64,000 nucleotides of DNA from positions 1,376,001 to 1,440,000 of the forward strand of contig OY970208.1 of the NCBI GenBank assembly GCA_963713865.1, read 5' to 3'. The DNA comes from an uncultured candidate division Zixibacteria bacterium (GTDB lineage Bacteria; Zixibacteria; MSB-5A5; RBG-16-43-9). Positions 21,862 to 58,600 of this stretch are shown here, piece by piece; within the stretch, counting starts at the first letter, position 1; each line of letters starts with the position of its first letter. Position numbers and translations under genes: made by a program. The notes under the pieces were generated by a model, which saw only the letters and a program-made list of their open reading frames with translations, made no database searches and was not told where the DNA came from.

Positions 21862-22618
21862 ATGAAAATCTTAAGAACCTGTCTCGAGTTGAAAAATTCT
21901 CTTCTGGATTTTGTCTTTCCTCCTCATTGTCTTCTGTGTAATCGATTAATATCTTCGGAGGAGGGTAAGTTTAACGGAATTCGTCCTGCAGGTCTGGTCT
22001 GTCAGGACTGCTGGAAAAGCTTGAACGTTCTGCCACATCCTTTTTGTCCGACCTGTCGGACTTTTTTAAACCAGAGTATGAGAAAATGTCCAAAATGTTC
22101 AGAATCGTCTTCTCTTAATATGAACAGGTCACTGGGTCTTTTTGATCCTGATTACCAGAACCCTCTTGCACCATTTTAAATATAAAAGGAAAATCTCCCT
22201 GGGTAAGGAGTTGGGTAAAAGATTAGGAGAGCTTTTAATACAAGATGAGTTTTCAAAAGATTATGGTTATCTTATACCGGTCCCCCTTCATAGCTCAAGG
22301 AAAAGGGAAAGGGGTTATAACCAGAGCAAAATCTTAGCGGAGGAGATTTCCGAGTTGACCTTTTTACCTCTTTTAGATAAGGTTCTGATGAGAAAGAAAA
22401 ATACCAGAGATCAGACTAATCTTAATGCAGAGGAAAGAGAGAGGAATGTAAGAGGGGCTTTCGTCGTAAGGGATAAGCTCGTGCCTAAAGGGGAAAGGGT
22501 TATTCTGGTGGATGATGTTATGACTACAGGTGCGACTTTAAAAGAATGCTCCAGAGTTTTAAAGGAGGCAGGCGTAAAAGAGGTGGCCGGGGTTACAGTG
22601 GCGGTAGTGAATTTTTAA
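21862..22618 (+). CDS. comF: ComF family phosphoribosyltransferase-like protein with double zinc ribbon, split by a +1 frameshift near 22159
   Basis: Zinc ribbons in 21862-22179; 'PVPLH..RERGYNQS' and 'LVDDVMTTGAT' in 22142-22618; deleting one A restores DYQTLLHHFKYK (251 aa). Confidence 0.85.
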
Positions 22619-22675
22619 AATTAATCCGCCACCGGGTGGACTAAAGGTTTCAAAAATTTCTAAACGGAGGGGATT

Positions 22676-23326
22676 ATGTCACTTTTAAGTGAAGAGATTA
22701 AGAAGGAATTGAAAAGGGAACTGGAGGGGTTAAAAAATGAAGTGAAGCTGATCGTCTTTACCCAGGAGTTAGAGTGCCAGTACTGCAAGGAAAATCATAT
22801 GTTGGCTGAGGATATTGTTTCACTAACAGATAAGATTAAATTAGAGGTGTATAATTTTACCTTAGACAAAAATAAGGTAGAGGAGTATAAGATTGATAAA
22901 ATTCCGGCTATGGTGGTATGTGATGAAACAGGAAAAGACTATGGAATAAGATTCTATGGTATTCCAACTGGATATGAATTCACCTCTTTGATTGAAGCTA
23001 TCAGAAATGTATCCATAGGTGAGTCTGGGTTAACTGAGAAAAGCAAGGGGGAACTGAAGAAACTTGCCAAACCAGTTCATATACAGGTTTTCGTTACATT
23101 AACCTGACCATACTGCACCCAGGCAGTTAGCCTGGCTCATCAGTTAGCTTTAGAGAGCGATTTGATAAAGGCGGATATGGTTGAGGCAGGTGAGTTCCCA
23201 CATCTTTCGCATAAATATGATGTCTTCGCTGTTCCCAAAGTGATTATAAACGAAAAACACGGTTTTGAGGGTGCCCTGCCAGAGGAAAGTTTTATAGCTG
23301 AGGTTTTAAAGGCATCTGAATTTTAA
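22676..23326 (+). CDS. Selenocysteine-containing protein disulfide oxidoreductase (two thioredoxin folds, CQYC + UPYC), 216 aa
   Basis: In-frame TGA 23105-23107 at the first Cys position of FVTLT-U-PYC; the frame continues with family-typical 'ADMVEAGEFPHLSHKYDVFAVPKVIINE..FEGALPE' to TAA 23324-23326. Confidence 0.9.
23119..23135 (+). promoter_or_regulatory. Bacterial SECIS-like hairpin
   Basis: CCAGGC-agtta-GCCTGG starting 11 nt after the UGA, with a G in the loop. Confidence 0.7.
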
Positions 23327-23527
23327 TTAAGTTACATTAAACATGGTTAATACTCTCCATAATGTCGTATACGTACGGAGTTTATTGTCTTCTTTAAAAT
23401 TATCCTATGTATAAAAGAAGACTCTGGATGGATATCTTTGTGTATTAACTACAACTGCCAGGTTAATTAAGGAGGCGGAGGTTGATATTCATCGGGTGAT
23501 AAAGGAGAGGGTAAAGATTTTAGTAGT

Positions 23528-23558
23528 GCGACCATATAAGGGTCGTTTTTCTTTTTTG
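23528..23558 (+). terminator. Intrinsic terminator
   Basis: GCGACC-atataag-GGTCGT followed by TTTTCTTTTTT. Confidence 0.55.
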
Positions 23559-23678
23559 TAAGAAATCTGCATTTTGGTTTGAAAATTCATGTTAAATTTT
23601 AAGATTTTTGTTGACTTAAGATTCTTAATTTCCGTAATTAATATAGAAATAGGGAATAACTTCAAAGAAAACATTAAA

Positions 23679-24215
23679 ATGAATTATTTTTTAACTGGAT
23701 TGCCAGGAATTGGTAAAACCTCCGTAATTAAAAAAGTAATTGAGAAAATGGATAGATCCACCTGCGGTTTCTTTACTACCGAGATTAGAGTTGGTGAGAA
23801 CAGGGTGGGTTTTTCTGTTCAGACACTTTTTGGGATGGAGGGGGTTTTAGCCCACAAAGAATTCAAGAGTAAATACCGGATGGGTAGCTATGGAATATCG
23901 GTTACTGGTTTTGAGAAGATTGTCTCCCGGGAATTAGAAAGGTGCTTAAGAGGACGTAGCATCATAATTATAGATGAGATCGGAAAGATGGAGCTTTTCT
24001 CCAGAAGGTTTCAAGAGCTGGTCCTGGTTTGTCTGGATGCTCCTAATCCGGTGTTGGGGACGATTATGTATGGTTATCACCCATTCGTGGAGAAGGTGAA
24101 GAAACGGGAAGATGTTAAACTCTTTGAAGTGACCAAACAGAATAGAAACCAGATGGTTAATATTTTGATGGAGGAATTTAAGAAAGAAAAGGTGAACGAA
24201 GGCTCCCCCCAATAA
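23679..24215 (+). CDS. NTPase (THEP1/NTPase_1 family)
   Basis: 'LTGLPGIGKT', 'GFFTTEIR', 'IIIDEIGKMEL'; probable ATG 23679. Confidence 0.9.
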   Translation: MNYFLTGLPGIGKTSVIKKVIEKMDRSTCGFFTTEIRVGENRVGFSVQTLFGMEGVLAHKEFKSKYRMGSYGISVTGFEKIVSRELERCLRGRSIIIIDEIGKMELFSRRFQELVLVCLDAPNPVLGTIMYGYHPFVEKVKKREDVKLFEVTKQNRNQMVNILMEEFKKEKVNEGSPQ

Positions 24216-24295
24216 AAAATTACCTGAATATCGTTACCACGTTGAATAAATCGAAAATTTAAATGTAGGGGCGTATTGTAATACGTCCCTACATT

Positions 24296-25297
24296 TTATG
24301 GTATTTCCAATACTCCAGCTCCGTTTATTTTCCCCTGCTTGAGTAATTGTAAAGCCTGATTTGCTTCTTTTAAAGGGAAAACAGAGACCTGGGTGCGGAT
24401 AGGGATTACTTCAGCCAGTTTGAGTAACTCTTCGCCATCTTTTCTGGTGCTGTTAGTCACGCTTCTTAAGGTCTTCTCATAATATAGATGTTCGGTGTAG
24501 TCCAGTTGGGGGGTAGGAGTCATATAGATTCCAGCCAGGATAAGTGTTCCGCCTTTGTTTAAGGATTTTAAAGCAGAGGGAACTATTTCTCCTGCAGGTG
24601 CAAAGATGATTGAGCTGTGGAGCTTTTTTGGGGGTGTTTGTTCTGTTTTCCCTGCCCAGACTGCTCCTAATTTTAAAGCTAATTTCTGATGTTCTGTGCT
24701 TCGAGTAAAGACATACACCTCACAATTCCAGTGAATAGCTATTTGTATAGTGATATGCGCTGAGGCTCCAAAGCCATAAAGTCCCAATCTCTCTCCTGGT
24801 TTGATTTCGCTCAGTTTTAAAGCTCGATATCCGATTATTCCTGCACAGAGTAAAGGAGCAGTCTCAGCGGGAGAGAGTTTATCTGGAACAGGGTAGGCGA
24901 AATCTTCTTGGATGACTGTATATTGGGCATAACCTCCATCTAAATGATAACCGGTGAATTTTGCCAATTCGCATAGATTTTCTTTTCCGCTTTTGCAGAA
25001 CTCGCATTTACCGCAGGTGTAATTTAACCAGGCAATACCAACTCTATCTCCGATTTTGAATCTTTGTGCATTTCCCCCTTTTTTCTCAACTATGCCTACA
25101 ATTTGATGTCCTGGTATTAGAGGTAGCCTGGGTAAAGGAAGTTCTCCTTCAACCGTATGCAGGTCGGTATGGCAAATTCCACATGCCTGCACGCGGATTA
25201 AAATATCCTCTGGTCCGATTTCTGGTATCGGGCTTTCTTTAAATTGAAGAGGATTTTTCTCGATTAAATCTGGTTTTTTTAAGAGCATTGCCTGCAT
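24296..25297 (-). CDS. Zinc-dependent alcohol dehydrogenase family protein
   Basis: 'CGICHTDLH', 'PGHQIVG', CGKCEFC..C structural Zn site, 'GLYGFGASAH'. Confidence 0.93.
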   Translation of the reverse strand: MQAMLLKKPDLIEKNPLQFKESPIPEIGPEDILIRVQACGICHTDLHTVEGELPLPRLPLIPGHQIVGIVEKKGGNAQRFKIGDRVGIAWLNYTCGKCEFCKSGKENLCELAKFTGYHLDGGYAQYTVIQEDFAYPVPDKLSPAETAPLLCAGIIGYRALKLSEIKPGERLGLYGFGASAHITIQIAIHWNCEVYVFTRSTEHQKLALKLGAVWAGKTEQTPPKKLHSSIIFAPAGEIVPSALKSLNKGGTLILAGIYMTPTPQLDYTEHLYYEKTLRSVTNSTRKDGEELLKLAEVIPIRTQVSVFPLKEANQALQLLKQGKINGAGVLEIP

Positions 25298-25314
25298 AGG
25301 ATTTCCTTCTGGTG

Positions 25315-25803
25315 GTAGAGACGCATAGCAATGCGTCTCTATTGTTCTCCATGGACAATCTCTTTATTTTGTGTGTCTGTCGGGTCCCCTGACCCGACAG
25401 ATTATTTTCTGAATAAACAATCTACCTCTAATGAAAACTTTTAGCAAGAAAATTTTGTTGTAAGGGCAAATGTGCTCGTCGTCCGCCTCAGGCGGACTGA
25501 CCCGTAGGTGGGTAGCACCCTCAACCAGTCGTTTAACATAGGTGATAAAAAATGGTAAAACAGGCATCCTGCCTGTTTCCCAAAGCTCAGATCCTGGAAA
25601 CGGGTCCGTTGGTCAGGAATGTCTGAGCTACCATTATGGATTCAGGTCCTAAAAATGGGTATGTAGGACGAGGACGCCTGACCCACCAACCCATCTACAT
25701 TGGGTGGTACTCTCAAACTCGTTTGAGGGTGATTCAGATTTACAACATCCCCCGTAGGGGGATGGCGCTCTGCTGTGGTGGCCTATAGCCATACACCCCT
25801 ACT
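25315..25803. repeat. Intergenic mosaic of REP-like palindromes
   Basis: GTAGAGACGCAT/ATGCGTCTCTA, TCTGTCGGGTC/GACCCGACAGA, GTCCGCCTCAGGCGGAC, AAACAGGCA/TGCCTGTTT, CTCAAAC/GTTTGAG, ...CCCCTAC. Confidence 0.75.
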
Positions 25804-25846
25804 TTTTTCTTGCTACATTTTTATTCTTCTGATATATTCTTTCAGT

Positions 25847-26338
25847 ATGGAAAAACCAGATAAAAAATCTACACCTAATAAAGAAGAGATTAAAATAATT
25901 GCCACTAATCGGAAAGCGCGGCATGAATATATTATCATAGAAACTTTTGAGGCAGGGTTGGTTCTGAAAGGAACTGAGGTGAAATCGCTGAGGGAAGGTA
26001 AGGCCAATCTCAGGGACTCTTATGCTAAAATAGATAAGGAGGAAGCAGTTCTCCTGAATATGCATATCAGTCCCTATGAAAAAGGTAATAGATATAACCA
26101 GGATCCAACCCGACCAAGAAAACTCCTTTTACACAAAAGCCAGATAAAAAGGCTGTTAGGTAAAGTGGTCGAAAAAGGTTTGACCTTAATCCCTCTCCGA
26201 CTCTACTTTAAGGGAAGTTATGCTAAAGTTGAATTGGCCGTAGCTGTGGGGAAGAAGCTTTTCGACAAAAGGAAATCGATTACGGAAAGGGATGTGGAAC
26301 GCGCTTTAAGAAGAGCTCTAAAGGAAAGAAATAAATGA
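25847..26338 (+). CDS. smpB: SsrA-binding protein
   Basis: 'NRKARHEY', '[15 protein letters not shown]', 'RKLLLHK', 'GKKLFDKR'; ATG 25847. Confidence 0.97.
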
Positions 26339-27796
26339 GCAGGCAGATTAGACACTTCCTGATATTATCTTTAATAATTTTTCTACATACTTTGTCATCT
26401 GCGGATACGATTACCATAGATAAAGGGGGAGAAAAATATCAGATAGAGAGTCTGGAGATAGAAGGGTATCAATATATCGATCTCTCAGATTTAAAGAAAA
26501 TCTATGGTGGGGAGCTTTTCTGGGAGCCACTGGGGAAAAAAGTAATGTGGGAGGTAAATGAACATCAATTCAAATTCGACCTTTTCTCGCCTTACATCCT
26601 GTTAGATCAGGAGGCTTATAATCTGACCTTGCCGGTTGAATTAAAGCAGGGCAAAATTTATCTTCCCTTTAAAACTTTCTGGCCTGTTTTAGAGTCGATT
26701 GAACCTCCGGAAGGTGTGGTAAAAAAAAGAGATTATAATATTTATGATCTAAAAGTTAGTCAGAAATTGAACGGATTTCTCATAGAGATAAATCTTTCCG
26801 AACCTCTTAATTATGAGGTTTTTAAAAGTGAGGATAACTGGCTTATTATAAATTTCTTTGAAGGTAAAATCGACACTCTCCTTTTCTCAAATTTAAATAT
26901 CCCTGAGATTATATCAGAAAGCAGGGCTTATCAATTTCAGGGATCAGCCCAGCTCTCTTTAAAACTTTACAAAGAATTTCCCCGAGAAGATCACTTTATA
27001 AAATCCACCCCGGATGGACTTTATCACTTGCAGATAACTATAGAGGACACAACTCAGAGTCAGTCTCCTGAGGAAAAGGAAGAGATGGAAAAAAATCAAT
27101 TCAATGTTATCATATTAGATCCGGGGCATGGGGGGGAGAATTCTGGAGCAGTTGGTACCAAGGGTTTAAAGGAAAAGGATGTAGTTCTGGATATCGCCCT
27201 GAGACTGGAAAAACTCCTGAAAGCTACTAAAAATGAAGATCTTAAAGTATATCTTACCAGAAAAGGCGATTATTTCGTTCCTTTAGAACAGAGGTCCTTG
27301 TTCGCCAATCAAAAAGGAGGAGATCTGTTTGTAAGCATTCATGCCAATGGAGCTAAAAGGAAAAAGGCATCAGGCACTGAAATATATTTCTTAGCCCAGG
27401 CGAATAATGATGAAGCCCGGGCCGTGGCAGCCTTAGAGAATTCAGCTATTCTGTTTGAACGCCCGGAAGGAACTCAGGTAGATACCTCAGTGCTTGATTT
27501 CATATTGATGGATATGCTCCAGAACAGAGTTTCTGAAGGAATCCAGCAACTTAGCTCAGATGATTCATGATCGGATGAAAAGTTCTCTCAATATCCAGAG
27601 TAGAGGAGTGGATCAGGCAGGGTTTTTCGTGTTAAATAAGACCTATATGCCTTCGGTTTTAGTAGAGACTGCTTTTATCACTAACCCGGAGGAAGAAAAG
27701 CTTTTAAATAAAGGCACTTTCAGGCAGAAGATAGCTGAGGCGATCTATCAGGCGATTCTGGATTTTAAAAACAAATATGAGGTTAAAGAAAAGTGA
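26335..27796 (+). CDS. N-acetylmuramoyl-L-alanine amidase (Amidase_3, AmiC-like), split by a +1 frameshift near 27523
   Basis: 'LDPGHGG', 'EKDVVL', 'FVSIHAN', and in the next ORF '[13 protein letters not shown]'; deleting one A gives [18 protein letters not shown] (486 aa). Confidence 0.88.
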
Positions 27797-28605: not shown

Positions 28606-28651
28606 AAGACGTGACCATGATACGTGAGCGTTATTCGTAGTAACATTTAAT

Positions 28652-28733
28652 CTGTCATTCCGAGGACGACGAAACAATCCCTATAGGGTAAACGGATTGC
28701 TTCGTCCGCCTCTGGCGAGACTCGCAATGACAG
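28652..28733. repeat. GTCATT...AATGAC-type palindromic element
   Basis: CTGTCATTCCGAG...CTCGCAATGACAG ends, internal GAAACAATCC/GGATTGCTTC, nested GTCCGCCTCTGGCGAGAC; relatives at 50764-50865 and 51475-51513. Confidence 0.7.
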
Positions 28734-28836
28734 CCAAAACACATCGGGCTCACGTATCCGTTGAGTCACCTGACCTAATAGTAGATGAGTTGAGACGCAT
28801 AACTATGCGTCTCTACAAGTACTAATAAAAAATAAA

Positions 28837-33005: not shown

Positions 33006-34625
33006 ATGAAAATAACCCGTCTCAATTTATTTTTCTTTTTTATACTTGATCTTTTCATATTTCAATTCTTAATCCTATCTGCCTTCGCAGTCATCCCCTT
33101 GGAAACTTCTCCTTCCTGGCGTTCGACTGAAACTAATGTATATTCTACAGGTGCGGTTTTTGGAGATATGGATGGGAACGGGTTTTTAGATTTAGTGGTC
33201 TCAAATGGGAACGATATGATTAAAGCTCCGAATTTCGTTTATTTCAATTATAACGGTAGATTAGATACTATTGCTGGTTGGGTCTCGGCTAATTCCGAAT
33301 TCTCCGGTCACTGTGCTTTGGGGGATATTGATAAAGATGGTTATCCGGAACTGGCAGTTTCAAACTATACTGAAAATAGCTGGGGGAAAACAGTTGTTCA
33401 GCTCTATGATAATGTCAATGGCTCTCTTTCTGTTTCACCTACCTGGTCATCTGCTGATTCGATGCATACTTTCACCTGCGCTTTCGGTGATGCGGATGGG
33501 GACGGGGATTTAGATTTAGCAGTTGCCTGTGGTGAGGCTTATAACCATTATTATGAACGTAACAGGATCTATTATAATCACAATGGAGTTTTAGAAACGA
33601 CCCCCTCCTGGATCTCCGGGGATTCTGGGTACTGTTACGACGTGGATTGGGGAGACGTGGATAATGATGGCGATCTGGATTTAGCTTTTATCTCTTCTGG
33701 AGGGCAGATAAGAGTTTATAAAAATTATAGTGATTCCATTGAAACTTTCCCCTCCTGGAAGTCAAAAGATTCAGATAACGGGAATAGTTTAGCCTGGGAC
33801 GATTTGAACAACGATGGTTATATGGATTTAGCAGTAGCTAATAATACTCAGTTGAGCGGAAAAGGTTATTTTGAAGTCTATCTGAATTATTCCGGAGTTT
33901 TAGATACACTTCCTTTCTGGACCTCATCCACCAAGGGTTATGGTTCTGCAGTTTCCTTTTGCGATGTGGATAACGATGGAGATAAAGATTTAGCTGCCGG
34001 GAGATGGTGGGGTTATTCAATGGTCTATGAAAATACAGGTGGTAATCTAACTACAACCCCTGTCTGGAGCTGTATATCTTCATATCAAAGTGTTATCGAA
34101 GAGATGGTCTGGGCAGATTTAGATGGGGATGGGTTGATAAAGATTAAAAATGAAGCTCACTCAGCAGATGGGATAAAAAAAGTTTATTATTTGAACCATT
34201 ATCCTGCTCATAAATTAGATCGGGTTATAGCAGATGAAGATACTTTGACTATAGATGACTATTGTTATAGTTTAGCCTCTGGCTGGGTCTCTTTTAAAAA
34301 CCCTCCGGTTTCTCAGGTCCTATTTGATTATAAGTTTTCTTTGAAACCGGATCTGGCTGTTAGTAACTGGGACCGGGAGAATTATTGTTTTTACAATTTG
34401 AATCAGTTATATCTAAGCGGAGATGCAAATCAGGACCAGAAGGTCTCGGTCTCAGATGTGGTATATCTGATTAATTATCTTTTAAAAGGAGGACAGGAGC
34501 CTTATTTTTTAGCCAGTGGTGATGTGACCCGCGACTGTCAAATCAACATCAATGACGTTATTTATCTGATCAATTATCTTTTCAAAGATGGACCAGCACC
34601 TTTAACCGGATGTGTAAAAGCATAA
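33006..34625 (+). CDS. FG-GAP/VCBS repeat protein with C-terminal dockerin-like domain
   Basis: About 7 'GDxDxDGxxDLA' repeats; 'GDANQDQKVSVSDVVYLINYLLKGG...GDVTRDCQININDVIYLINYLF'. Confidence 0.85.
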   Translation: MKITRLNLFFFFILDLFIFQFLILSAFAVIPLETSPSWRSTETNVYSTGAVFGDMDGNGFLDLVVSNGNDMIKAPNFVYFNYNGRLDTIAGWVSANSEFSGHCALGDIDKDGYPELAVSNYTENSWGKTVVQLYDNVNGSLSVSPTWSSADSMHTFTCAFGDADGDGDLDLAVACGEAYNHYYERNRIYYNHNGVLETTPSWISGDSGYCYDVDWGDVDNDGDLDLAFISSGGQIRVYKNYSDSIETFPSWKSKDSDNGNSLAWDDLNNDGYMDLAVANNTQLSGKGYFEVYLNYSGVLDTLPFWTSSTKGYGSAVSFCDVDNDGDKDLAAGRWWGYSMVYENTGGNLTTTPVWSCISSYQSVIEEMVWADLDGDGLIKIKNEAHSADGIKKVYYLNHYPAHKLDRVIADEDTLTIDDYCYSLASGWVSFKNPPVSQVLFDYKFSLKPDLAVSNWDRENYCFYNLNQLYLSGDANQDQKVSVSDVVYLINYLLKGGQEPYFLASGDVTRDCQININDVIYLINYLFKDGPAPLTGCVKA

Positions 34626-38155: not shown

Positions 38156-41100
38156 TCAGCACCCAGGAGCAGGTCCTCCTTTGAAAAGATAATTAATCAT
38201 AAAGATCACATCTGAGACATTAACCTTACCGTCACATTGTATATCCCCGCAGGTTAAGATGGGTTGTGGAGGAGGGCCGCCCTTGAAAAGATAGTTAATC
38301 AAATAGATAACATCCGTCACATTAGCCTTGGCATCGGCGTTGGCATCACCCGGCATACAGGAGGGCACATAGAAACTGAAGGTTTGGGTAGACCAGGTCC
38401 CTTGAGTATTGGTATCTTTAGCTTTGACCTTCCACCAGTAGAATATTCCGATCTCCAGTTGAGGAGTAGTATAGGTTGAATCAGTTAAATTAGCCACCAC
38501 AACCGCTGTGCTGAAATCCGGAATGGTATCATAGTAGAGGTCGTATTTGACAACATCTCCGGGGTCAGGGTCCTTTGCCTTTCTCCAGATCAAAGTAGGT
38601 TCCAGGGAGGAAAGGGTATCCTCGTTTGGAGGAGAAACTAAACTGAAGGGTTTGGGTGGCTGAGGCACATAAAGGGTTACCTTGAAAGTTCCGGTTGACC
38701 ATCTGCCTGAGGTATTGATATCTCTTGCCTGAACTTTCCAGTAGTAACTGCTGTCATCCCTTACTGTGACAGTTCTTGTGGTGTCTTTCAGGTTGATAAT
38801 CTTCCTGGGATTGGTAAAGCCGGAATTAATATCATACCAGAGGTCATAGAGTATCGAGTCGCCAGGATCAGGGTCGGTAGTAGACTGCCAGTAGAAGGTG
38901 AAAGTGGAGTCGCTCAAAGTAGCATTATTTAACGGAGATAATAAAGTAAAAGTATTGGGTTGCTGAGGATAATAAACATGGAAACTCCAGTATGGATCTG
39001 TGCTCCAGCTTTCTCCTCCATAACTATCTTTTGCCTTGACCTTCCAGTAATAAGTGGAATCATCATAAAGACTGGTGGTCAGGGTTTCCAAGGTGTCGGT
39101 GGATAAGACTGAATCGTAGACTGCAAAAGTATTATCGCGGGAGTAATAAACTATGTAACTTATCGCGTCAAGTGGGTCAGGGTCAGATGGTTTATTCCAT
39201 CTCAAGGTTGGGGTGAGGACTGAAACTGTGCTTCCATTTGAAGGAGAGATCAAGGCGAATGAAGATGGTGCCACATTCAATGTGCGGAAACTCCAGTAAG
39301 GCTGGGTGCTCCAGGTTGTCAAATTAAATTTGTCTTTTACCCTTACTTTCCAGTAGTAGATAATATCATTCAATAGTCCGGGCAAAGTATAGGAAGTATC
39401 CGTGATTGCACCTGATGAATCTGTGTAAATCAGGGAATCAAGTGACCAGAAAACTTTGTAGGATAACTGGTCATTAGGATCAGGGTCTGTTGCTTTGTGC
39501 CAGTATAATTTGGGATGTAAAATTAATGTGTCCTTATCATCCGGCGAGGCTAAGCTGAAAGAATTAGGAGCTTGCGGCACATAGACATTAAACCGCCAGT
39601 TAATCTGGGTACTCCAGCGGCCGGAGGTATTTATATCTTTTGCCAGGACTTTCCAGTAATAGGTGCTATCGTCCTGGCCAGTAAAATAGTAAAAGGTATC
39701 AGGTAAGTTCGCAACAATAACGGGATTGGGGAAACCTGAACGTGAATCGTAATAAAGGTCATAGAGAATAGAATCACCAGGGTCAGGATCTGTGGTTGAG
39801 CGCCATCTCAAAGTATCTGAATACTGATAGATAGTATCAAGGTTAGGAGGGTAGACCAGGCTAAAGGTTGCAGGCTGTTGCGGGTAATAGACACGGAAAT
39901 TCCAGGTGTTGTTGCTCAAAGTAGTCTTTCCCCATTTATCCACTGCCTTGACTTTCCAGTAATACACTGTATCATCGCTTAGAGCGGGCATAACCCGGAA
40001 GGTATCTGCTATATTATAAAAAGAGTCAATTGGGGTGAAGTCACTTTCCTTAGAATAGTAAAGAGTATATTTGACAGTATCCAGTGGGTCAGGGTCGGTT
40101 GCCTTGTGCCATCTGAGTGTAGGAGTTAAGGTGGAAACAGTGGAGCCGCTATCTGGTGAAATCAAAGTAAAGGCGGCCGGGGCAACATTTACCACCAGGA
40201 TCACTGTAGTTGAATGGGTCTGGCTTCCTGTTCCCTGTATGGTCAGGGTATAAGTTCCAGCAGGTGTGGAGCCAGTGGTGTTAACATTCATAACAGAAGA
40301 GGTGGTTGGTGATTTTACAGGGTTTGGACTGAAACTGGCTGTTGTTCCACCAGGCAGACCCGAGACAGATAAGGTGCAGGGATGTGCAAATCCGTAAAGA
40401 TAACCCAGGTTTACAGTGTAGTTAGTAGAGGCACCCACATCGATCGTCCTTGAACCTGGTGTTGCTCCAATGGTAAAGTCAGGTATGGAGAAATCAGCAT
40501 CACTTCTATCCTTAGGAGCACCATCTGCAGCGTCTGAGACCCTCACCCGGTTATTAGCAGATGGCGTATTCGGGATGGTCCAGGTATGAGTTCCATCATT
40601 CGGGGTGCTGGCTATGATGGTTGTCCAGGCGGTTCCAGAATTAGTTGAATTTTCGAGTTTGACATTTCCAGTAAAGCCCACTGATCTCCAGAGTATATCC
40701 TTATTCTCCCCCACATACCAGACCTCTCCTCCATCTGGATCTAAAATCTCAAGAGCAGAGCCTAAACATCCGGCTACATACTTGGGAGTAAATCCAAGCG
40801 CGGTGGCGGAATTGGTGAACTCCAGTTGATTAGCAGGGGGGACAAAGGTAGAATCGATTATTATCCCGATGTCTGATTTCCAAGTTGAGCTGGTGGTGAA
40901 ATAGATGGTGCATATTGGACCACTGCCAGCGTTAAAAGCTCCACTCCATACTGCCCAGATATTCATTCTATAATTTGCAGTATCCACATAATTAGGGGAA
41001 GTTGGATCTCCAGCATAACTTTGCGCTGGGTTAGAAGTGAATCTTGACTCCCAATGAATAGAATCACAGCGCAGATCTAAGTTATCAGGGTTGTAAAAAG

Positions 41101-41296
41101 TTAAAGGAATGGTAAACCCTCCCAAATTCTGGTCATTATAAATATAGACTTTAACTGTAACCTGCTGGCTGGGACCCACGGTGAGCTTTTGTTCTACTCT
41201 ACAGGTGTCAGGGTTACCGGTGTCCTGGGAGAAGGCAGGGGGAGTAAGGAAAAGAAATAACAGAAGCATTAAAAAAACTAATCCTCTTTCTTTCAT
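38156..41296 (-). CDS. Large secreted protein: cohesin-like N-domain, Ig-like domains, six FN3/cadherin-like DPDPxD repeats, C-terminal dockerin-like domain
   Basis: Signal peptide; 'VTVKVYIYND..LGGFTIPLTF...GSGPICTIYF'; six 'W..DPDPxD..Y...YYWKV.AKD' modules; 'GDANADAKANVTDVIYLINYLFKGG'. Confidence 0.78.
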   Translation of the reverse strand: MKERGLVFLMLLLFLFLTPPAFSQDTGNPDTCRVEQKLTVGPSQQVTVKVYIYNDQNLGGFTIPLTFYNPDNLDLRCDSIHWESRFTSNPAQSYAGDPTSPNYVDTANYRMNIWAVWSGAFNAGSGPICTIYFTTSSTWKSDIGIIIDSTFVPPANQLEFTNSATALGFTPKYVAGCLGSALEILDPDGGEVWYVGENKDILWRSVGFTGNVKLENSTNSGTAWTTIIASTPNDGTHTWTIPNTPSANNRVRVSDAADGAPKDRSDADFSIPDFTIGATPGSRTIDVGASTNYTVNLGYLYGFAHPCTLSVSGLPGGTTASFSPNPVKSPTTSSVMNVNTTGSTPAGTYTLTIQGTGSQTHSTTVILVVNVAPAAFTLISPDSGSTVSTLTPTLRWHKATDPDPLDTVKYTLYYSKESDFTPIDSFYNIADTFRVMPALSDDTVYYWKVKAVDKWGKTTLSNNTWNFRVYYPQQPATFSLVYPPNLDTIYQYSDTLRWRSTTDPDPGDSILYDLYYDSRSGFPNPVIVANLPDTFYYFTGQDDSTYYWKVLAKDINTSGRWSTQINWRFNVYVPQAPNSFSLASPDDKDTLILHPKLYWHKATDPDPNDQLSYKVFWSLDSLIYTDSSGAITDTSYTLPGLLNDIIYYWKVRVKDKFNLTTWSTQPYWSFRTLNVAPSSFALISPSNGSTVSVLTPTLRWNKPSDPDPLDAISYIVYYSRDNTFAVYDSVLSTDTLETLTTSLYDDSTYYWKVKAKDSYGGESWSTDPYWSFHVYYPQQPNTFTLLSPLNNATLSDSTFTFYWQSTTDPDPGDSILYDLWYDINSGFTNPRKIINLKDTTRTVTVRDDSSYYWKVQARDINTSGRWSTGTFKVTLYVPQPPKPFSLVSPPNEDTLSSLEPTLIWRKAKDPDPGDVVKYDLYYDTIPDFSTAVVVANLTDSTYTTPQLEIGIFYWWKVKAKDTNTQGTWSTQTFSFYVPSCMPGDANADAKANVTDVIYLINYLFKGGPPPQPILTCGDIQCDGKVNVSDVIFMINYLFKGGPAPGC

Positions 41297-41805: not shown

Positions 41806-43977
41806 ATGAAAAGAGTATTTAGATATTTTGTGTTTATCATCTCTATTCTAACCCTTTGCTCTTCGGTTTATGCACAAAGGTATATGCAAGCAAGAATACA
41901 CTTTAAAGATAAAGCGGAGATGAAAAAGGTTTTAAGCCTGGATTTAGATAGAGCTTATCTAAAGTATGGTGAGTATTTAGATATAGTTACAGATTCAGCC
42001 GAGGTTGAAGAGCTAAGAGCTTCAGGCTATCAGGTCGAAGTGGTAATTGAAGATCTGGTTCAGTATTATCAAAGGAGGATGAAAAAGGCTTTAGATATGG
42101 GTGGGTTTCATACTTATGATGAGACCGGGTTAGCTCTGGATTCGATTCATAACCTGTATCCGCAGATTACTACCTCTAAAATTACCATTGGCTATTCTTT
42201 AGAGGGAAGGCCAATCTGGGGAATGAAGATCTCTGATAATCCGGATATAAATGAAGATGAGCCGGAGGTGTTCTATAGTGCCCTGATTCACGCACGGGAG
42301 CCTATAACTATTGAAGTATTGCTATACTTTATGCGATATCTGTGCGGGAATTATGGTTCTGATTCTCTGGCTACTTTTCTGGTGAATAACCGGGAGTTAT
42401 GGTTTGTCCCGATTATAAATCCAGATGGTTATGAATTTAATCGTTTGACTGAACCGTATGGTGGAGGGATGTGGAGGAAGAATAGAAGACTTAATTCAGG
42501 CGGTTCTTACGGAGTGGATTTAAACCGGAACTTCGGGTATATGTGGGGATATGATAACATAGGTTCTTCTTCTGTTCAGAGCTCTGAGATCTACAGGGGA
42601 ACAGGACCGTTTTCCGAGCCAGAAACGCAGGCTATCAGAGCATTCGTTGATTCCTCAGAATTTGTCTTAGCCTTGAATTATCATTCTTATGGAAATGATT
42701 TTCTCTATTCATGGTGCTATGATGACCTCTATACGCCAGATCAACAAATTTTCAAAGCTATAGGGGATAGCGTTCAAACTCTGACCGGATTCTGGGCTGG
42801 AACCAGCTGGGAGATATTGTATAATACTAATGGAGATTCGGATGACTGGATGTATGGGGAACAAACTGAGAAGAACAAAATCTTTGCCTTTACTCCGGAA
42901 GTAGGAGATGAGTATGATGGTTTCTGGCCTGACCCTTCGAGGATAATCCCTTTAAGCGAGTTAATGCTCGGAACTAACCTTCTGATAGCTACAATAGCAG
43001 AAAATCCTTATATATTTTTATCTCCCGATCCACCGGTTTTAGCTGAACTGGATAGTGTGGCTACTGATAGCTTTAGTTTAAGCTGGATTCATTCTGATAC
43101 TCTTAATCCAGCAGTAAGCTACACTTTATTGGAACTCAAAGACCTTAACGTTGAAAGCTATGATGGCGAGAGTGGAACTGCTGGCTGGGATTTAAGCGGG
43201 TTTACGCTTTCCACAACCAAAAGTTATTCCCCCACTCACTCTCTTTTCTCAGGCTCCGGTGATGACCTGGATAATTACGTGGTAACATCAGATTTCATCT
43301 CTATTCAGCCGGGTGATACTCTGACCTTCTGGTGTAATTATGAAATAGAGGAGGGATATGACTATCTCTATGTAGAGGTATCATTTGATGGAAAAACATT
43401 TCAGTCCATTCCTGGAAATATCACTACCAATGATAATCCTTATAGTCAGAACCTGGGGAACGGGATAACCGGAAGCTCTGGAGGCTGGATTAAAGGGATT
43501 TTCGATTTAAGCCAGTTTGAAGATAAAGATATCCTTTTACGTTTCCATTATAAGACAGATGTGTGGATAGCTTATTCGGGGTTTTATGTGGATGATATTT
43601 ATCCTGTGGCGAAATTTCAGAGGAGTTCCATCTTAGCAGATACTATATCTCAAAAGAATTATCTGGTTCAGAGGAAATGTTCGGATGTTTACTACTATAA
43701 ATTGAAAGCTAAAGATGCTCAGGGTCAGGAGAGCCTGTGGAGCAAAAGGGAAAGAGTGGCAGTTGGTCTTGATTTCATACGGGGTGATACCAATTCTGAT
43801 GACAAGCTCTCCTTAGGGGATATAGTTTTTCTCATAAATTATCTTTTCAAGTTTGGACCTGCACCTGAACATTCGCAATCCGGTGATGCTAATTACGATG
43901 GTAAAGTCAGCCTTGGGGATATCGTCTATTTGATCAACTATCTATTTAAAAGCGGATCGCCGCCGTGCGTGGATTAA
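41806..43977 (+). CDS. M14 zinc carboxypeptidase (carboxypeptidase T-like) with jelly-roll domain and C-terminal dockerin-like domain
   Basis: 'IHAREP', 'NPDGY', 'WRKNRR', 'GVDLNRN', 'SEPET', 'YHSY', 'FTPEVG'; 'GDTNSDDKLSLGDIVFLINYLF'. Confidence 0.92.
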   Translation: MKRVFRYFVFIISILTLCSSVYAQRYMQARIHFKDKAEMKKVLSLDLDRAYLKYGEYLDIVTDSAEVEELRASGYQVEVVIEDLVQYYQRRMKKALDMGGFHTYDETGLALDSIHNLYPQITTSKITIGYSLEGRPIWGMKISDNPDINEDEPEVFYSALIHAREPITIEVLLYFMRYLCGNYGSDSLATFLVNNRELWFVPIINPDGYEFNRLTEPYGGGMWRKNRRLNSGGSYGVDLNRNFGYMWGYDNIGSSSVQSSEIYRGTGPFSEPETQAIRAFVDSSEFVLALNYHSYGNDFLYSWCYDDLYTPDQQIFKAIGDSVQTLTGFWAGTSWEILYNTNGDSDDWMYGEQTEKNKIFAFTPEVGDEYDGFWPDPSRIIPLSELMLGTNLLIATIAENPYIFLSPDPPVLAELDSVATDSFSLSWIHSDTLNPAVSYTLLELKDLNVESYDGESGTAGWDLSGFTLSTTKSYSPTHSLFSGSGDDLDNYVVTSDFISIQPGDTLTFWCNYEIEEGYDYLYVEVSFDGKTFQSIPGNITTNDNPYSQNLGNGITGSSGGWIKGIFDLSQFEDKDILLRFHYKTDVWIAYSGFYVDDIYPVAKFQRSSILADTISQKNYLVQRKCSDVYYYKLKAKDAQGQESLWSKRERVAVGLDFIRGDTNSDDKLSLGDIVFLINYLFKFGPAPEHSQSGDANYDGKVSLGDIVYLINYLFKSGSPPCVD

Positions 43978-46679: not shown

Positions 46680-48503
46680 TTATCTATTCTTTAAACTTAT
46701 TTTAGATTTTGTATGGATTTTAGTCCGGTAAGATTTACATTTTTCTTTGATTAAACTCAATTGAATTTCCGAAAGCTGATAGGTACCATTATTCGTTTTT
46801 TTAAATTCAGACATTCCTGTTGTTCTTGCCGCAGCTGTAACCTCACCCCAGTTAATAAAATATTCGTCAAAGTAATTAATAGGGAATTTGCTTAGTTTTA
46901 TGACGTCATCTCTATTCGGTATTCGTCCGAGTTGTTTAGATATATTTTTTACTTCAAGTTGAAGCACCTTTTTACTAACCTGATACTTTTGTTTTTTGAG
47001 TCTTTTGACAGGGCTATTCTTTGCTTTAGGAATATCACCATTCTTTCTAAATGGATCAAGACCAAATTCCAATTCTTTGTGCCTTTTAGATGCAAGCCTG
47101 TAATAATACTCTGAAAATTCAATACCAACATATCGCCTTCGCAATTGTTGCGTGGCCAAAGTTGTAGTTCCCACTCCATTAAATGGATCAAGAACTATCT
47201 CATCTTCATGCGTAAACAAAGCTATCAAGCGATACATAAAGTTCGGTGGAAGTTGGCAAGGATGATCGACTCTACGGCTATTATGTTTCAGACGGTGAAT
47301 ATCCCACCAAAGATTTGAAGTTGTTTCAGCATCCTTGTGTTTCAATAATTTTCTCGTATTCATACAGTTCGGTCTGATACAATAATTTTCCGACAATGTC
47401 TGAATTGCCATCTTCTCAAGGGCAGTTTGATTTTGACGCGTCAATCCTGGTAACGGTCTTGGTTTGCCTTTTGAAAAACAGAGTATTGAATAATGGGCTG
47501 GCATTATCATTCTGACTGGCATACTGAGCCCTTCCCAAACTATCCAGTCTTGGTAATCCATTATGGTTTTTAAATATCTAAAATACCTTATACACCATTG
47601 TGGTATATTTAATACTGCAAGAGTCCTGCCAGGTTTTAATACCCTTGCTAATGAACTTAGCCATTTGTCGCACCAACCAAAATAGGTCTGAATATCAATA
47701 CCATCATTCCAGCTTTCGTATTTTTTGTTTAGGTTGTATGGGGGGTCTGCGAAACAAAAATCTATACTGTTATCCGGAATGCGATCTAATTCTTCTAAAC
47801 AATCTCCCTTTATTAAGGCCGAATGTTTTGGATATTGATTTTCAGTATGAGAATATTTCTTATAATTTAATTTGGCATACAAAATTGGTTTGTAATATTT
47901 TCTTTGATCATATATATTCACCGATTCGTATTCAGCTAAACCGAATAAATCCTGCAATCTTTTTACGACATCCTGAGGATAGGTTTCGAAATCAACCGTT
48001 ATGTCACGCCAAACATCTGACACTAATGTTCCAAATTCGTGATAAAGATGTTTCTTGCCACCATAATCTTTTGTTGTTCTATGGCAGGAGGGACAATACG
48101 TATAGGCAATCCTTGTTTTTGTATGCCGCAAGCTCCCATGGTATCGTGTGAATATCAGCAAGGCAGCATGCCTTTGAACTAGCCCTCCCTCCTTTGAAAA
48201 GGAGTGGTCGAGCTTTACTGCTACCCAAAGCTTTAGATAGGATCGATTTTTATTTGACGCCGAACAAAAGTCTGCCGCAAATATTGGGGAACTCAGAATC
48301 GCTATAGTAGAAGTTGGATTGGCTCTGTTAAAAAAATCATTAAGATCTTTATATAGGGCTTCTTTATTTGGAATTTCCTCGATTGTTTTGAAGTAAGGTA
48401 GAATTATAAATTCTACATTTGCTCTATTAGGCATGCACATAGTGAGATTATCATTTATATTTCTTTCTTTCATAGGACTGGGATTTTCACTTAAATGTGA
48501 CAT
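46680..48503 (-). CDS. N4-cytosine/N6-adenine DNA methyltransferase (beta class) with N-terminal extra domain and C-terminal HNH-associated-repeat-like helical domain
   Basis: 'GDCLE', 'FADPPY', 'HPCQLP', 'VLDPFNGVGTT', 'GIE'. Confidence 0.88.
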   Translation of the reverse strand: MSHLSENPSPMKERNINDNLTMCMPNRANVEFIILPYFKTIEEIPNKEALYKDLNDFFNRANPTSTIAILSSPIFAADFCSASNKNRSYLKLWVAVKLDHSFSKEGGLVQRHAALLIFTRYHGSLRHTKTRIAYTYCPSCHRTTKDYGGKKHLYHEFGTLVSDVWRDITVDFETYPQDVVKRLQDLFGLAEYESVNIYDQRKYYKPILYAKLNYKKYSHTENQYPKHSALIKGDCLEELDRIPDNSIDFCFADPPYNLNKKYESWNDGIDIQTYFGWCDKWLSSLARVLKPGRTLAVLNIPQWCIRYFRYLKTIMDYQDWIVWEGLSMPVRMIMPAHYSILCFSKGKPRPLPGLTRQNQTALEKMAIQTLSENYCIRPNCMNTRKLLKHKDAETTSNLWWDIHRLKHNSRRVDHPCQLPPNFMYRLIALFTHEDEIVLDPFNGVGTTTLATQQLRRRYVGIEFSEYYYRLASKRHKELEFGLDPFRKNGDIPKAKNSPVKRLKKQKYQVSKKVLQLEVKNISKQLGRIPNRDDVIKLSKFPINYFDEYFINWGEVTAAARTTGMSEFKKTNNGTYQLSEIQLSLIKEKCKSYRTKIHTKSKISLKNR

Positions 48504-48510
48504 GCCGCAC

Positions 48511-49524
48511 CTAATTTTTGTCGATATTTTTAAGGAAATCTAAAAGTTTATCAAGCTCGCTATCTTTGAAGGTGACAATACAATCGCTAAACTGGCATAT
48601 ACTCTTCAGCGCCGAGGCTCGTTCAAAATTGCCAGCCCCATCAATGACATAAGCAATTTTGTGGCCATATTTATGAAGAAGTCTTTGTCTTGCTTGAGCC
48701 TGTCCTGCTTTTCTTTCAATGGTGCTATTAGTTGTAACCTGGAAGCTGACTTCGATCGCACAAAACTTGCCTTTAGGGGAAGAAGCAACAATGTCAAACG
48801 ACAGCGAAGTTCGATCATTCTGGCTGATTTTCGGAATCTGTTTTTTTGTCAAATCCCAGGTAGGAAGTTTGCTCTTAAGGTAGTTAACCACGTATTTTTG
48901 AGCTAAATTTCCTAGCGCATTTGCAGTCGCTCCACCGGTTATTCTACTTACCCAAATATAACGTTGTCTGACGAAAGCATCCAATTCCTTTTTCTGCCCG
49001 ATTAACGTTCCAATTAAGCATTTTTCTGTAATAACTGACGGTAACTTTTCCACTGCAGCAGTGCTGCCAAATAGAATCAGACTAATTACATCTTCCATCA
49101 TTGGAGAAAGCCGTTCACTTTGTGCAAGTCCATTGCCATCAACTTTCAAGTGCGGATTACTCCATGTCTTTCGTTTCCGAAGCGTTTGGAACTTATAACT
49201 ATGATTTGAGCCATTCCAGATAAATTCCATTGTTGAGTTTGGGAATATCATCGGCAATTCCTTCTTGAAACGCATGAGTTTTTCGCCACCTATATCGGAG
49301 AGAACAATAAGATGTTTTAAGAATAGATTTGCAGACAACTTCTTTGATGTGGCAAGCACATTCTTCCATGCAGTCGGTGATGAGTCAGCAATATTTAGTA
49401 AACTAATGAATTTATCCTGGGTCTCAAGCAGCATCGGTATTATGCTTGCATCTCGTTCTATCTCGGATAATTGATCAGGCCACCATTTGATTGCATTTCT
49501 TTCCAAATCAATTAAATCCCGCAT
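48511..49524 (-). CDS. Type II restriction endonuclease, BanI/HgiCI-like
   Basis: PD-(D/E)xK-like 'FDIV...AIEVSFQVTTNSTIERKAGQA', 'ERNAIKWWP', 'NLFLKHL', 'VSRITGGA', recalled as BanI-like; adjacent to an MTase. Confidence 0.75.
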   Translation of the reverse strand: MRDLIDLERNAIKWWPDQLSEIERDASIIPMLLETQDKFISLLNIADSSPTAWKNVLATSKKLSANLFLKHLIVLSDIGGEKLMRFKKELPMIFPNSTMEFIWNGSNHSYKFQTLRKRKTWSNPHLKVDGNGLAQSERLSPMMEDVISLILFGSTAAVEKLPSVITEKCLIGTLIGQKKELDAFVRQRYIWVSRITGGATANALGNLAQKYVVNYLKSKLPTWDLTKKQIPKISQNDRTSLSFDIVASSPKGKFCAIEVSFQVTTNSTIERKAGQAQARQRLLHKYGHKIAYVIDGAGNFERASALKSICQFSDCIVTFKDSELDKLLDFLKNIDKN

Positions 49525-51664: not shown

Positions 51665-51856
51665 TTATCCGCTAAGCGGATGCGTGGGAGAGGAGAGTTT
51701 CGACTTTGGGCTTTCTGTCTCCCTCATCCAGGAGGGAAGAAAACTTTTCTTCACTCTTCGAATTCTATCCTTATCGGGTTTATTGTTTTTACCGTTGTCC
51801 GGTCCGCCTTTAGCGGGTTCGTCTTTAGATCCTCTGGTTTTCAAACACTGGTCCAT
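51665..51856 (-). CDS. Small hydrophilic hypothetical protein (63 aa, MDQCLKT...)
   Basis: GGAGG-aaag-ATG just after the upstream stop; no homology recognised. Confidence 0.4.
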   Translation of the reverse strand: MDQCLKTRGSKDEPAKGGPDNGKNNKPDKDRIRRVKKSFLPSWMRETESPKSKLSSPTHPLSG

Positions 51857-51882
51857 CTTTCCTCCAGTAGAGAGAGCTTTTT

Positions 51883-55141: not shown

Positions 55142-55184
55142 AGATGAAAGTTAAATTTTTATTGATTGTAACGATTATATTTTA

Positions 55185-55200
55185 TGCAACAATTGTGCCA
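55185..55200 (-). promoter_or_regulatory. sigma54 (-24/-12) promoter
   Basis: Minus strand TGGCAC-AATTG-TTGCA, exact TGGCAC-N5-TTGC, about 45 nt upstream of 55141. Confidence 0.8.
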
Positions 55201-55652
55201 GAAGAAAGCTAAATATGCCAAATATTTGGTGAGGAGTAACCTCTTTCAAATAAACGGATTAGAGGTTAAACCCTGATTGAGTGCAAAACGGATTTATCAA
55301 ATAGTTATCTCCATCAGTTAAAAATGTGGGAGAAAGTCAATAGTTTATTGGGGAAATGCAAGTTGAAAGCAATTACGGATGACGAATGATGGATGATGAA
55401 ATAATGATAAGAAAGACTGCTCTATCCTAATTTATCATCAGGACCCAAAATCGTGGATCCATAGTATTGGTTTACTCCAACGAAGTTGAACATAAAGATA
55501 TTGGTTAGGAGACCAACGTCCAGCAGGATATGTTTAGAATTCAATTAAAAAACTCTTTACAAAGAAGAAAGATAAATATATAATAAACTGATGTTTTGGA
55601 TAACTTAGAGTGGCATCAAGGTTAATTCTTTAAAACTCTTTTGATCAGGTAG

Positions 55653-58600
55653 ATGGGAAGAGAGCTTTTCTTAGGAATCGATATCGGCTCAGTCTCGGTT
55701 AAGATTGTCCTTTTATCTCCGGTAGGGGCAATTTCCGAATGGATCCATACTGGACATGAATTGCTCCTACAAAGAGGGGATACTTCAAAGCAAATAATTT
55801 ATCATTCTTATACCCGTCATGAAGGACAGCCCTATAAGGTCCTTTTTGACCAGCTTCAAAAACTATTTCATAATTACGACTACAGAGAGATAAAAGGAGT
55901 TGCCACGACCGGTACAGGGGGAAAGCTTGCGGCTGAGCTCCTGGGGAGTAAGTTTGTCAACGAGGTTATCTCTCAGGTTAAAGCTACTTCTTTTCTTTGT
56001 CCTGAGGTAAGATCAATAATCGAGATGGGGGGAGAGGATTCCAAACTCCTTTTGCTCAAAGAAGATAGTAATTCCGGTGCCCTTTTATTAGATGATTTCT
56101 CTATGAATACCCTGTGTGCGGCTGGAACTGGCTCTTTTTTGGACCAGCAGGCAAAAAGGTTAAATATAAATATTGAAAATGAGTTTAGCCAGTTAGCTCT
56201 TAAATCAAAAAATCCACCCCGGATTGCTGGAAGGTGCAGTGTCTTTGCTAAATCGGATATGATTCACCTTCAGCAGATAGCTACTCCGGATTATGATATT
56301 GTGGCAGGGCTGTGTTATGCTATGGCCAGGAATTTTAAATCGAGCATTGCCCGGGGTAAAGAATTAAGAAAAAAAATATCGTTTCAGGGTGGTGTAGCAG
56401 CCAATTCAGGGATGGTTAGAGCTTTCCAGGATGTCTTTGAACTGGATGTAGATGAGTTAATCATTCCGCAGTTTCATTCAGAGATGGGCGCAATAGGTTC
56501 AGCTCTGAGCCTTTTAGAAGATGGAAGAGAAGAAGCTGATTTTAAAGGTTTAAATAGACTGAGTGAATATCTCTCCACACCCAGGAATCGTAAGGGAAAA
56601 GAGAAACTTCATTTCAACTATCCTGAAACTAAATATTACTCTCAAACTTCAGCTTTTCAAGTACCAGAGGGGAAAGATATTCCAGCTTATCTGGGGATTG
56701 ATGTGGGCTCTTTGTCCACTAATGTTGTGGTGATTGATGAAGATAACATGGTGCTCTCCAGAACGCTATCTAATGACCGAAGGGAGACCGATTGAGGCGG
56801 TAAGAAGAGGGTTAGAAGAGGTGGGGAATGAAATTGGAGATAGGGTGAAAATTTTAGGAGCAGGTACTACTGGCTCAGGCAGGTACCTGATTGGTGATTT
56901 TATAGGGGCAGACATCGTACACAACGAGATAACCGCCCAGGCAAGAGCAGCAATTGAGTTCGATCCCGAAGTAGATACCATCTTTGAGATAGGGGGACAG
57001 GATTCTAAATATATAAGCTTAGAAAACGGCATCATAGTTGATTTCGAGATGAATAAGGTCTGTGCTGCTGGAACAGGCTCCTTTTTGCAGGAACAGGCAG
57101 AAAAGTTAAATATAAAAATCGAAGAGGAGTTTGGGAAGTTAGCCCTGCAGGCCGATTATCCGGTAAACTGCGGCGAGAGATGCACGGTATTTATGGAATC
57201 AGACCTGAATGCTCATCAGCAAGCAGGCGTGAATAAAGATGATTTAGTCGCCGGGCTGGCTTATTCTATAGTCTTTAATTATCTGAATAAAGTAGTTGGG
57301 AAGAAAAGAATCGGGAATAAGATTTTCTTCCAGGGTGGGGTTGCCTGGAATGAAGGGGTGGTTTCAGCTTTCGAGAAAGTCCTGGGTAAAGAAATTGTCG
57401 TGCCACCTCATCACGATGTCACCGGGGCAATAGGGGTGGCTATCTTAGCTAAAGAAAGGAATGATACTGGAAAGACTAATTTCAAAGGGTTCGACCTTTC
57501 AACCAGAAAATATGAGATAGAGACTTTTGAATGTCAGGATTGTGCCAATCATTGCGAGATAAAAAAAGTTTCAGTGGAAAGGGAGAAACCTCTTTTTTAC
57601 GGGAGCAGGTGTGAAAAATACGATTTAGAGAAAAGAAGCTCTAAAAAATCTGATCTTCCAGATCTATTTGAGGTAAGGGATAGAATTCTTTTATCATTAC
57701 ATCAGGAGTTTACTCCTAAACTTGAGAAAAAAGGGGAAATCGGTATTCCAAGAGCTCTTTTCTTTTACGAGTATTTCCCCTTCTGGGCAACTTTTTTTGG
57801 GAACTTAGGGTATGAGGTGATCTTATCAGACAGGACTTCCAAGCGGATTATTCGTCAGGGGGTGGAAACAGTTTTAGCTGAAACCTGTTATCCAATAAAA
57901 GTTGCTTTTGGACATATTCAAAATCTTTTAGAGAAGAAAGTCGATTACATCTTTTTCCCCAGCCTGATTAACCTGAAGAAAGATGATCCAGACTCAGAGA
58001 GCTATTCCTGCCCTTATGTTCAGGCTTTTCCTTATATCCTTAAAGCTACATATGACTTTGAGCAGAAGGGGATAAAGCTTCTTTCGGCTCCGGTTCACTT
58101 CCAGAGAAGGAAAGGAGCTTTGTTAAAAGAACTGGTCGAACTATGCAAGGACTTGAAGGTCAAGAGATCATTACTTAATACAGCTTTTAATAAAGCAGAG
58201 GCTTGTCAAAATGAATTCTACAGGAGAATCCGTTCATGCGGAGAGGAGATACTGAAAGATTTGAAAGGAAGAAATACACTGGTGGTGCTGGGAAGACCTT
58301 ATAATACCTGCGATCCTCTCTTGAGCTTAGAGCTTTCTAAGAAATTAAAAGAATTAAGATGTTTAAGTCTGCCTTTAGATTTTCTTCCTTTGAAATCATC
58401 CGCATATAATTCCATCATGCAGAATATGTACTGGAAATATGGGCAGAAAATCTTAGCGGCCACAGAATTTATCAAGAAAACTCCAGGGCTTTTCCCGGTC
58501 TATGTGACCAATTTCGGATGCGGTCCTGATTCCTTTATCCTTCATTTTTTCAAATACAGTCTGGGCAAGAAACCTTTTCTTCAATTAGAATTAGATGAAC

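Follow-up and report, generated by a model that had tools for sequence, protein, structure and literature searches.

Recurrent frameshifts at CCAGAAC in a Zixibacteria genome as a probable systematic consensus error at CCAGAC sites

The stretch of DNA analysed here (the window, 64,000 nucleotides) covers positions 1376001–1440000 of the genome of an uncultured candidate division Zixibacteria bacterium, which is a single contig of 2,723,046 bp with 40.4% G+C. Three genes of the window that otherwise look intact are each broken by a frameshift, and all three breaks lie at the same heptamer, CCAGAAC. Are these genes broken in the organism, and why should the breaks recur at one short word? A preliminary description of the window, made from its letters, proposed a systematic basecalling or consensus error at a modified CCAGAC motif. 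Our analysis makes it very probable that the extra A is a systematic consensus error of the long-read assembly, most likely caused by N6-methyladenine on one strand of CCAGAC. The artefact is supported by its motif specificity, its independence of gene orientation and codon phase, the breakage of essential genes, and the lack of the extra base in relatives; what we infer is that the DNA is modified, at which position and by which enzyme, and on which platform it was sequenced. The proposal of the preliminary description thus gains support from genome-wide enrichment, controls and relatives as regards the consensus error, and its modification part keeps its conditional standing.

The affected genes of the window, the motif copies within them and one control copy are as follows.

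21862..22618, + strand: comF-like gene, split into open reading frames (ORFs) 21862–22179 and 22142–22618, with Pfam matches to DZR_2 (E 4.2e-10) and Pribosyltran (E 3.9e-11).
22155..22161, + strand: CCAGAAC in the comF-like gene; one A of 22159–22160 is almost certainly spurious, and dropping it joins 112 and 151 codons.
26335..27796, + strand: N-acetylmuramoyl-L-alanine amidase gene, split into ORFs 26335–27570 and 27560–27796.
27519..27525, + strand: CCAGAAC in the amidase gene; one A of 27523–27524 is almost certainly spurious.
27184..27190, − strand: control, an intact in-frame CCAGAAC whose ORF becomes shorter when an A is removed; the window has 13 copies of this kind.
55653..59964, + strand: gene of a double-ATPase CoA-enzyme activase (BcrAD_BadFG twice, plus DUF2229), split into ORFs 55653–56795 and 56734–59964.
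56758..56764, + strand: CCAGAAC in the activase gene; one A of 56762–56763 is almost certainly spurious.

At each of the three sites the ORF in frame f stops 20–60 nt downstream of the motif, and shortly before the motif a long ORF begins in frame f+1. Such a layout is the signature of one surplus base. In Pfam searches the comF-like break falls between the double zinc ribbon and the phosphoribosyltransferase domain, and the single Amidase_3 domain is cut cleanly, with profile positions 1–106 in the first ORF and 107–173 in the second. The first BcrAD_BadFG domain of the activase is complete, and the second lacks its first 39 profile positions. The preliminary description had named comF, the amidase and the dehydratase activator (the activase above) as broken at CCAGAAC; the motif matches, the ORF pairs and Pfam confirm this, and the peptides YQTLLHHFK, MLQTEFLKES and LSRRYLMTEG, said to be restored once one A is dropped, follow from the sequence. 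The motif is indeed in a different codon phase in the activator, the computed phases being 2, 2 and 1 for comF, the amidase and the activase, and the in-frame CCAGAC noted near 60885 lies inside an intact DUF885 gene.

The heptamer is found in the window in 16 copies, compared to 7.25 expected from shuffles. Three of the 16 (at 22155, 27519 and 56758, all on the + strand) are frameshift-like, and the other 13 are read in frame. No frameshift was found in the window besides these three sites. The sole other long ORF overlap, 3275–4027 with 3955–5895, was rejected as a frameshift candidate, as it is formed by two distinct genes encoding a GT2 and a PMT-like transferase.

For the genome as a whole, overlap zones were collected from same-strand stop-to-stop ORFs, requiring at least 80 codons before the zone and at least 80 codons of open downstream frame after it. 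This gave 342 zones of the "+1" type (one extra base) and 340 zones of the "−1" type. In a motif-free scan of k-mers with k = 5–8, CCAGAAC together with its complement was the most enriched heptamer of the "+1" zones, occurring in 66 of the 342 versus 3.7 expected. It occurred in 4 of the 340 "−1" zones, where the enriched words were start-codon and ribosome-binding words only. No other motif linked to frameshifts emerged from the scan of the overlap zones. The preliminary description had proposed the genome-wide tabulation of k-mers at frameshift junctions as the result by which it might be refuted, and this tabulation turned out to be strongly positive.

Independently of the zones, one A was removed from every genomic copy of CCAGAAC, and a copy was counted if the spanning ORF thereby grew by 50 or more codons and had 30 or more on each side. 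The removal merged long ORFs at 88 of the 671 copies (13.1%). For ten control heptamers the same fraction was 0.3–1.3%, and for the 21 other one-base insertions into CCAGAC it was 0–3.3%, so that only one of the 22 insertion variants is affected. With looser thresholds the test was passed by 117 of the 671 copies, versus 1.3–6% in the controls. The word counts agree with this. Under a maximal-order Markov model CCAGAC is observed 1186 times with 1289 expected, that is, 103 below expectation, and CCAGAAC 671 times with 559 expected, that is, 112 above. The matching deficit and excess mean that about 100–110 of approximately 1290 true sites, or roughly 8%, carry the extra A, which puts a figure on the earlier statement that the effect is partial.

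In other respects the assembly is clean. Homopolymers of every run length showed no excess of frameshifts, only a background of about 1%. Hence CCAGAAC accounts for essentially all of the detectable frameshift excess, and homopolymer errors are ruled out as a general cause of the breaks. The same observation bears on an artefact of another kind, a sequence-specific weakness of the basecaller, the consensus caller or the polisher at CCAGAC that has nothing to do with modification. All evidence for an artefact fits such a weakness equally well, dependence on context is to be expected of it, and the modification is something we infer. However, generic k-mer weaknesses of long-read callers concentrate in homopolymers, where no excess is seen here, and two Type IIG-like enzymes are encoded in the genome. 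Moreover, a six-base asymmetric motif with a penultimate A has the shape of Type IIG target sites. We therefore consider a weakness unrelated to modification unlikely, and retain a consensus error at modified sites as the explanation.

The position of the motif relative to the genes was then compared with that of CCAGAC. Among the affected sites, 29 are in the sense and 59 in the antisense orientation, with phases 8/10/11 and 23/29/7, respectively. The background CCAGAC sites in ORFs of at least 150 codons are distributed as 397:652 sense to antisense, with phases 85/118/194 and 263/324/65. The motif occurs in all six orientation-by-phase classes, in proportions like those of background CCAGAC, and as regards orientation and phase the affected sites look almost as if they had been drawn at random from all CCAGAC sites. 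This excludes a translational or transcriptional signal, and the argument against ribosomal frameshifting that had been drawn from the codon phases of the window sites is reinforced, since all six classes are used. Near-random sampling also shows that essential genes are not spared by selection, which is what one would expect of insertions that were never present in the cell.

One could suppose that the organism does have the extra A and corrects for it during expression, through programmed ribosomal frameshifting, transcriptional slippage or RNA editing, and at first sight one fixed heptamer at every break does resemble a recoding signal. But the motif is antisense at two thirds of the sites and uses all three codon phases, the frame continues unshifted across 583 of the 671 copies, and in relatives the same proteins are encoded by DNA that lacks the additional base. 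Transcriptional slippage needs a sufficiently long run of identical bases, and the sites contain no homopolymer run, only AA. Recoding is thus close to refuted, and we give it practically no credence.

The sequence context of the affected sites shows preferences only. The base following the motif is A at 40% of the affected versus 20% of the unaffected sites, and T at 11% versus 30%. A longer, extended motif was considered and rejected, as no flanking base is strict.

The 88 sites correspond to 85 distinct junctions. Both halves of each junction were compared with NCBIfam or Pfam, and at 32 of the 85 the profile coordinates of one family abut across the break. The genes include the following.

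guaA: profile positions 1–436, then 427–512 across the break.
purM: profile positions 1–177, then 178–331.
glyQS: profile positions up to 300, then 300–453.
metG: profile positions 3–227, then 227–648.
adk: profile positions 1–145, then 142–212.
ftsA: profile positions 2–92, then 93–371.
ligA: profile positions 1–504, then 496–664.
Further genes abutting across the break: gcvT, tdh, the gene of a HypD-type glycyl radical enzyme, radA, nuoG, nuoL, nuoN, kdpA and porU.

No second copy of glyQS, metG, adk, ftsA, ligA, guaA, purM or radA was found by tblastn in the genome. Pseudogene formation and phase variation concern dispensable genes or genes with intact duplicates, and here these broken genes are single-copy and essential. 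The same genes speak to the possibility that the extra A is real and marks a mutational hotspot, where damage or faulty repair at modified or enzyme-bound CCAGAC would have altered about 100 sites. In favour of a hotspot, the comparison was with relatives, and those without the base represent other strains. However, the only copies of glyQS, metG, adk, ftsA, ligA, guaA and purM would be inactivated, which is intolerable for a living cell, and the sites are random for orientation and phase, with no sign of purifying selection against genic hits. A hotspot is accordingly very improbable. The preliminary description had ranked a real indel or recoding as the less likely alternative, and the hits in essential single-copy genes, the antisense sites and the relatives without the base bear out that ranking.

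The three window sites were aligned with related genomes. One base fewer was present in all aligned relatives, namely six of six at the comF site, seven of seven at the amidase site and 11 of 11 at the activase site, and at each of the three both same-genus genomes have CCAGAC. The control copy at 27184 showed no indel in any of six aligned relatives. In two further regions, all six predicted sites covered by same-genus contigs had the extra base relative to them, and all four covered non-frameshift copies of CCAGAAC had no indel. Overall, in the comparison with the same-genus genomes the extra base was present at nine of nine predicted sites, and no indel was seen at five of five non-frameshift CCAGAAC sites. 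The breaks at 1199951 and 1201223 are CCAGAAC sites with an extra base relative to the same-genus genomes. The base at 27523 is omitted in contigs of two metagenome runs from different studies (X1 and X7); runs X4 and X5 have no coverage there. The relatives have an uninterrupted frame with one base fewer, and the frameshift is not conserved in orthologues.

A separate observation from the same-genus comparison concerns locus L082 (genome about 2163600–2167700). At 1480–1615, 3489–3535 and 5455–5575 of this locus, short intergenic stretches with lengths of 25–60 bases match dozens of places at 80–100% identity in both same-genus genomes, and look like dispersed small repeats.

Several observations weigh against a consensus error at modified CCAGAC. 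A family that bridges the break at E ≤ 1e-12 is lacking for 51 of the 85 junctions, where one or both halves have no match at this threshold. Two of the 85 are false positives of the ORF test, as they turned out to be neighbouring genes instead of frameshifts (sdhC/sdhA at 49044, and an unknown ORF with dusB at 2550597). The compared genomes are other strains or species with 88–95% identity, the metagenome contigs likewise come from relatives, and no public run was found with half or more of the sampled assembly words, so the absence of the A rests on relatives. Only about 8% of the sites are affected, and the context preferences are modest. There is also a weak genome-strand bias of the affected sites, 55 on the + and 33 on the − strand with a background of 606:580. 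Finally, published methylation-linked errors are mostly substitutions, and an insertion of the modified base is not described in the covered parts of the relevant papers (PMC6591954, PMC12392509, PMC11610603).

A replication-strand effect was tried as the source of the 55:33 bias and rejected, since the bias does not reverse between the two arms defined by GC skew. The cumulative GC skew is lowest near 2.70 Mb and highest near 1.91 Mb. These extremes imply replication arms that differ greatly in length, about 1.93 Mb for one and 0.79 Mb for the other.

If the extra A is a consensus error caused by modification, the following sequence of events may be proposed. The extra A would be absent from the DNA of the organism, and the A of ...GAC would be called twice at roughly 8% of CCAGAC sites, so that the assembly would read CCAGAAC there, with a false +1 frameshift in every gene that contains such a site. 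The penultimate A of CCAGAC would be N6-methylated on one strand only, probably by an enzyme of the Type IIG type. Reads of the modified strand would be miscalled and those of the other strand would be correct, and the wrong call would prevail in the consensus only at sites with a favourable local context and strand coverage. A modification on one strand, with half of the reads disturbed, would explain why the effect is partial.

Which enzyme could write such a mark? The preliminary description had set aside a local BanI-like enzyme, whose expected site GGYRCC does not match, and had taken another modification system to be implied; both the BanI-like enzyme and its methylase are indeed present at 46683–49524 of the window.

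48514–49524 of the window, − strand: BanI-like restriction enzyme (RE_BanI, E 6.7e-129).
46683–48503 of the window, − strand: N6_N4 DNA methylase of the BanI-like system (N6_N4_Mtase, E 5.4e-41).

The recognition site of BanI is GGYRCC. The BanI-like system is a separate, local restriction-modification system and an unlikely source of the CCAGAC effect.

Candidates of the kind predicted in the preliminary description (Type IIG, Type III or BREX-like methylases) are encoded elsewhere in the genome, namely two Type IIG-like fused enzymes; for BREX only a lone PglZ domain was found.

395484–398139 of the genome (locus L046): Type IIG-like candidate with HSDR_N, then Eco57I/N6_Mtase/MmeI_Mtase, then a TaqI_C specificity domain.
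719455–722574 of the genome: second Type IIG-like candidate, with N6_Mtase/Eco57I.

The first candidate is itself split by CCAGAAC at 395903, with HSDR_N in the first ORF and the remaining domains in the second. A nuclease, an N6-adenine methylase and a specificity domain are joined in one polypeptide there only if 395903 is read as CCAGAC. Several N6_N4 methylases are also encoded in the genome, and the two fused enzymes should be taken as candidates only. The miscalls might also reflect a real epigenetic mark that has so far not been described, in which one of the two Type IIG-like enzymes would modify the adenine of CCAGAC on a single strand; we consider this reading rather improbable. In its boldest version the mark would be bulkier or partially installed, so that the approximately 8% of miscalled sites would be the sites actually modified.

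Other modifiers were considered and rejected. BREX is represented by a single PglZ-domain match (1571024–1571443, locus L103), which is far from both methylases, and phosphorothioation by the Dnd system was rejected since no DndC match was found in the genome (other Dnd/Ssp genes were not searched). In the literature text, no paper was found that pairs CCAGAC or GTCTGG with REBASE, a search that did not cover supplements, where motif tables often sit. A search of the literature text for CCAGAC together with methyltransferase and motif returned only primer-type occurrences among the matches listed.

Two side observations concern genes of this kind. The lone PglZ domain at 1571024–1571443 possibly belongs to a PorX-type regulator rather than to BREX, given the presence of type IX secretion genes. 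Two N6_N4 DNA methylase genes (1921225–1922117 and 2683782–2684926) are likewise broken into different frames, but their overlaps contain no CCAGAAC, and they may be real pseudogenes; hence the motif does not explain every broken gene in the genome.

The consequences of the consensus error are practical rather than conceptual. The broken genes should be read as intact, and breaks linked to CCAGAAC should be read through when gene loss, metabolism or defence are inferred from this genome. The genome is a species representative, in which a single repeated miscall would cause about 100 genes to be annotated as split or as pseudogenes. Among these genes are those of aminoacyl-tRNA synthetases, DNA ligase, FtsA, adenylate kinase, three subunits of complex I and one of the organism's own restriction-modification enzymes. 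Marker completeness of the single closed contig is 94%, versus 98% for a same-genus draft, and the same miscall may have lowered the value for the closed chromosome. The artefact also suggests that, in this uncultured phylum, CCAGAC is probably recognised by an adenine methyltransferase.

Another completeness value deserves mention. A same-order relative with a single-contig genome of 2.6 Mb has a marker completeness of only 74%, and may carry consensus-error frameshifts of its own.

Apart from the split genes, three secreted-looking proteins of the window have a C-terminal dockerin type I domain.

33006–34622, 38159–41296 and 41806–43974 of the window: dockerin-bearing proteins, being an FG-GAP repeat protein, a large Ig-domain protein and an M14 carboxypeptidase.

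Three known systems may be compared with these observations. Programmed +1 ribosomal frameshifting, as in prfB, and slippage share with them a fixed short sequence at a one-base frame change. Signals of these kinds act on the sense strand, always in one codon phase, and relatives share them. Unlike them, CCAGAAC is antisense at two thirds of the affected sites, is found in all phases and is absent from relatives.

Type IIG enzymes of the Eco57I/MmeI type have asymmetric 6-bp motifs, and the candidate at 395484–398139 resembles them in having a nuclease, a gamma-class N6-adenine methylase and a TaqI_C-type specificity domain. Enzymes of the MmeI type methylate the penultimate A of an asymmetric site of 6–8 bp on one strand only, as in TCCRAC. 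The candidate differs from MmeI in having no Pfam match to the MmeI N-terminal, helical or TRD domains, and its MmeI_Mtase match is weaker than that to Eco57I.

The closest parallel is provided by Nanopore sequencing. Systematic consensus errors in Nanopore assemblies result from DNA methylation motifs that are particular to a strain (PMC6591954, PMC12392509), and methylation-linked errors arise on the modified strand only (PMC11610603), according to the covered parts of these papers. As far as these parts go, the errors at methylation motifs (Dcm CCWGG, Dam GATC and strain-specific motifs) and the breaks described here have in common that they are concentrated at one short motif genome-wide, that they are strain-specific and that only a fraction of the motif copies is miscalled. 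The known errors occur on the modified strand and survive long-read polishing. They are mostly substitutions in the same sources, unlike the duplication of one A seen here, for which both the modification and the platform are presumptive. The frameshifts at CCAGAAC very probably have no biological basis and belong to a known class of assembly artefacts.

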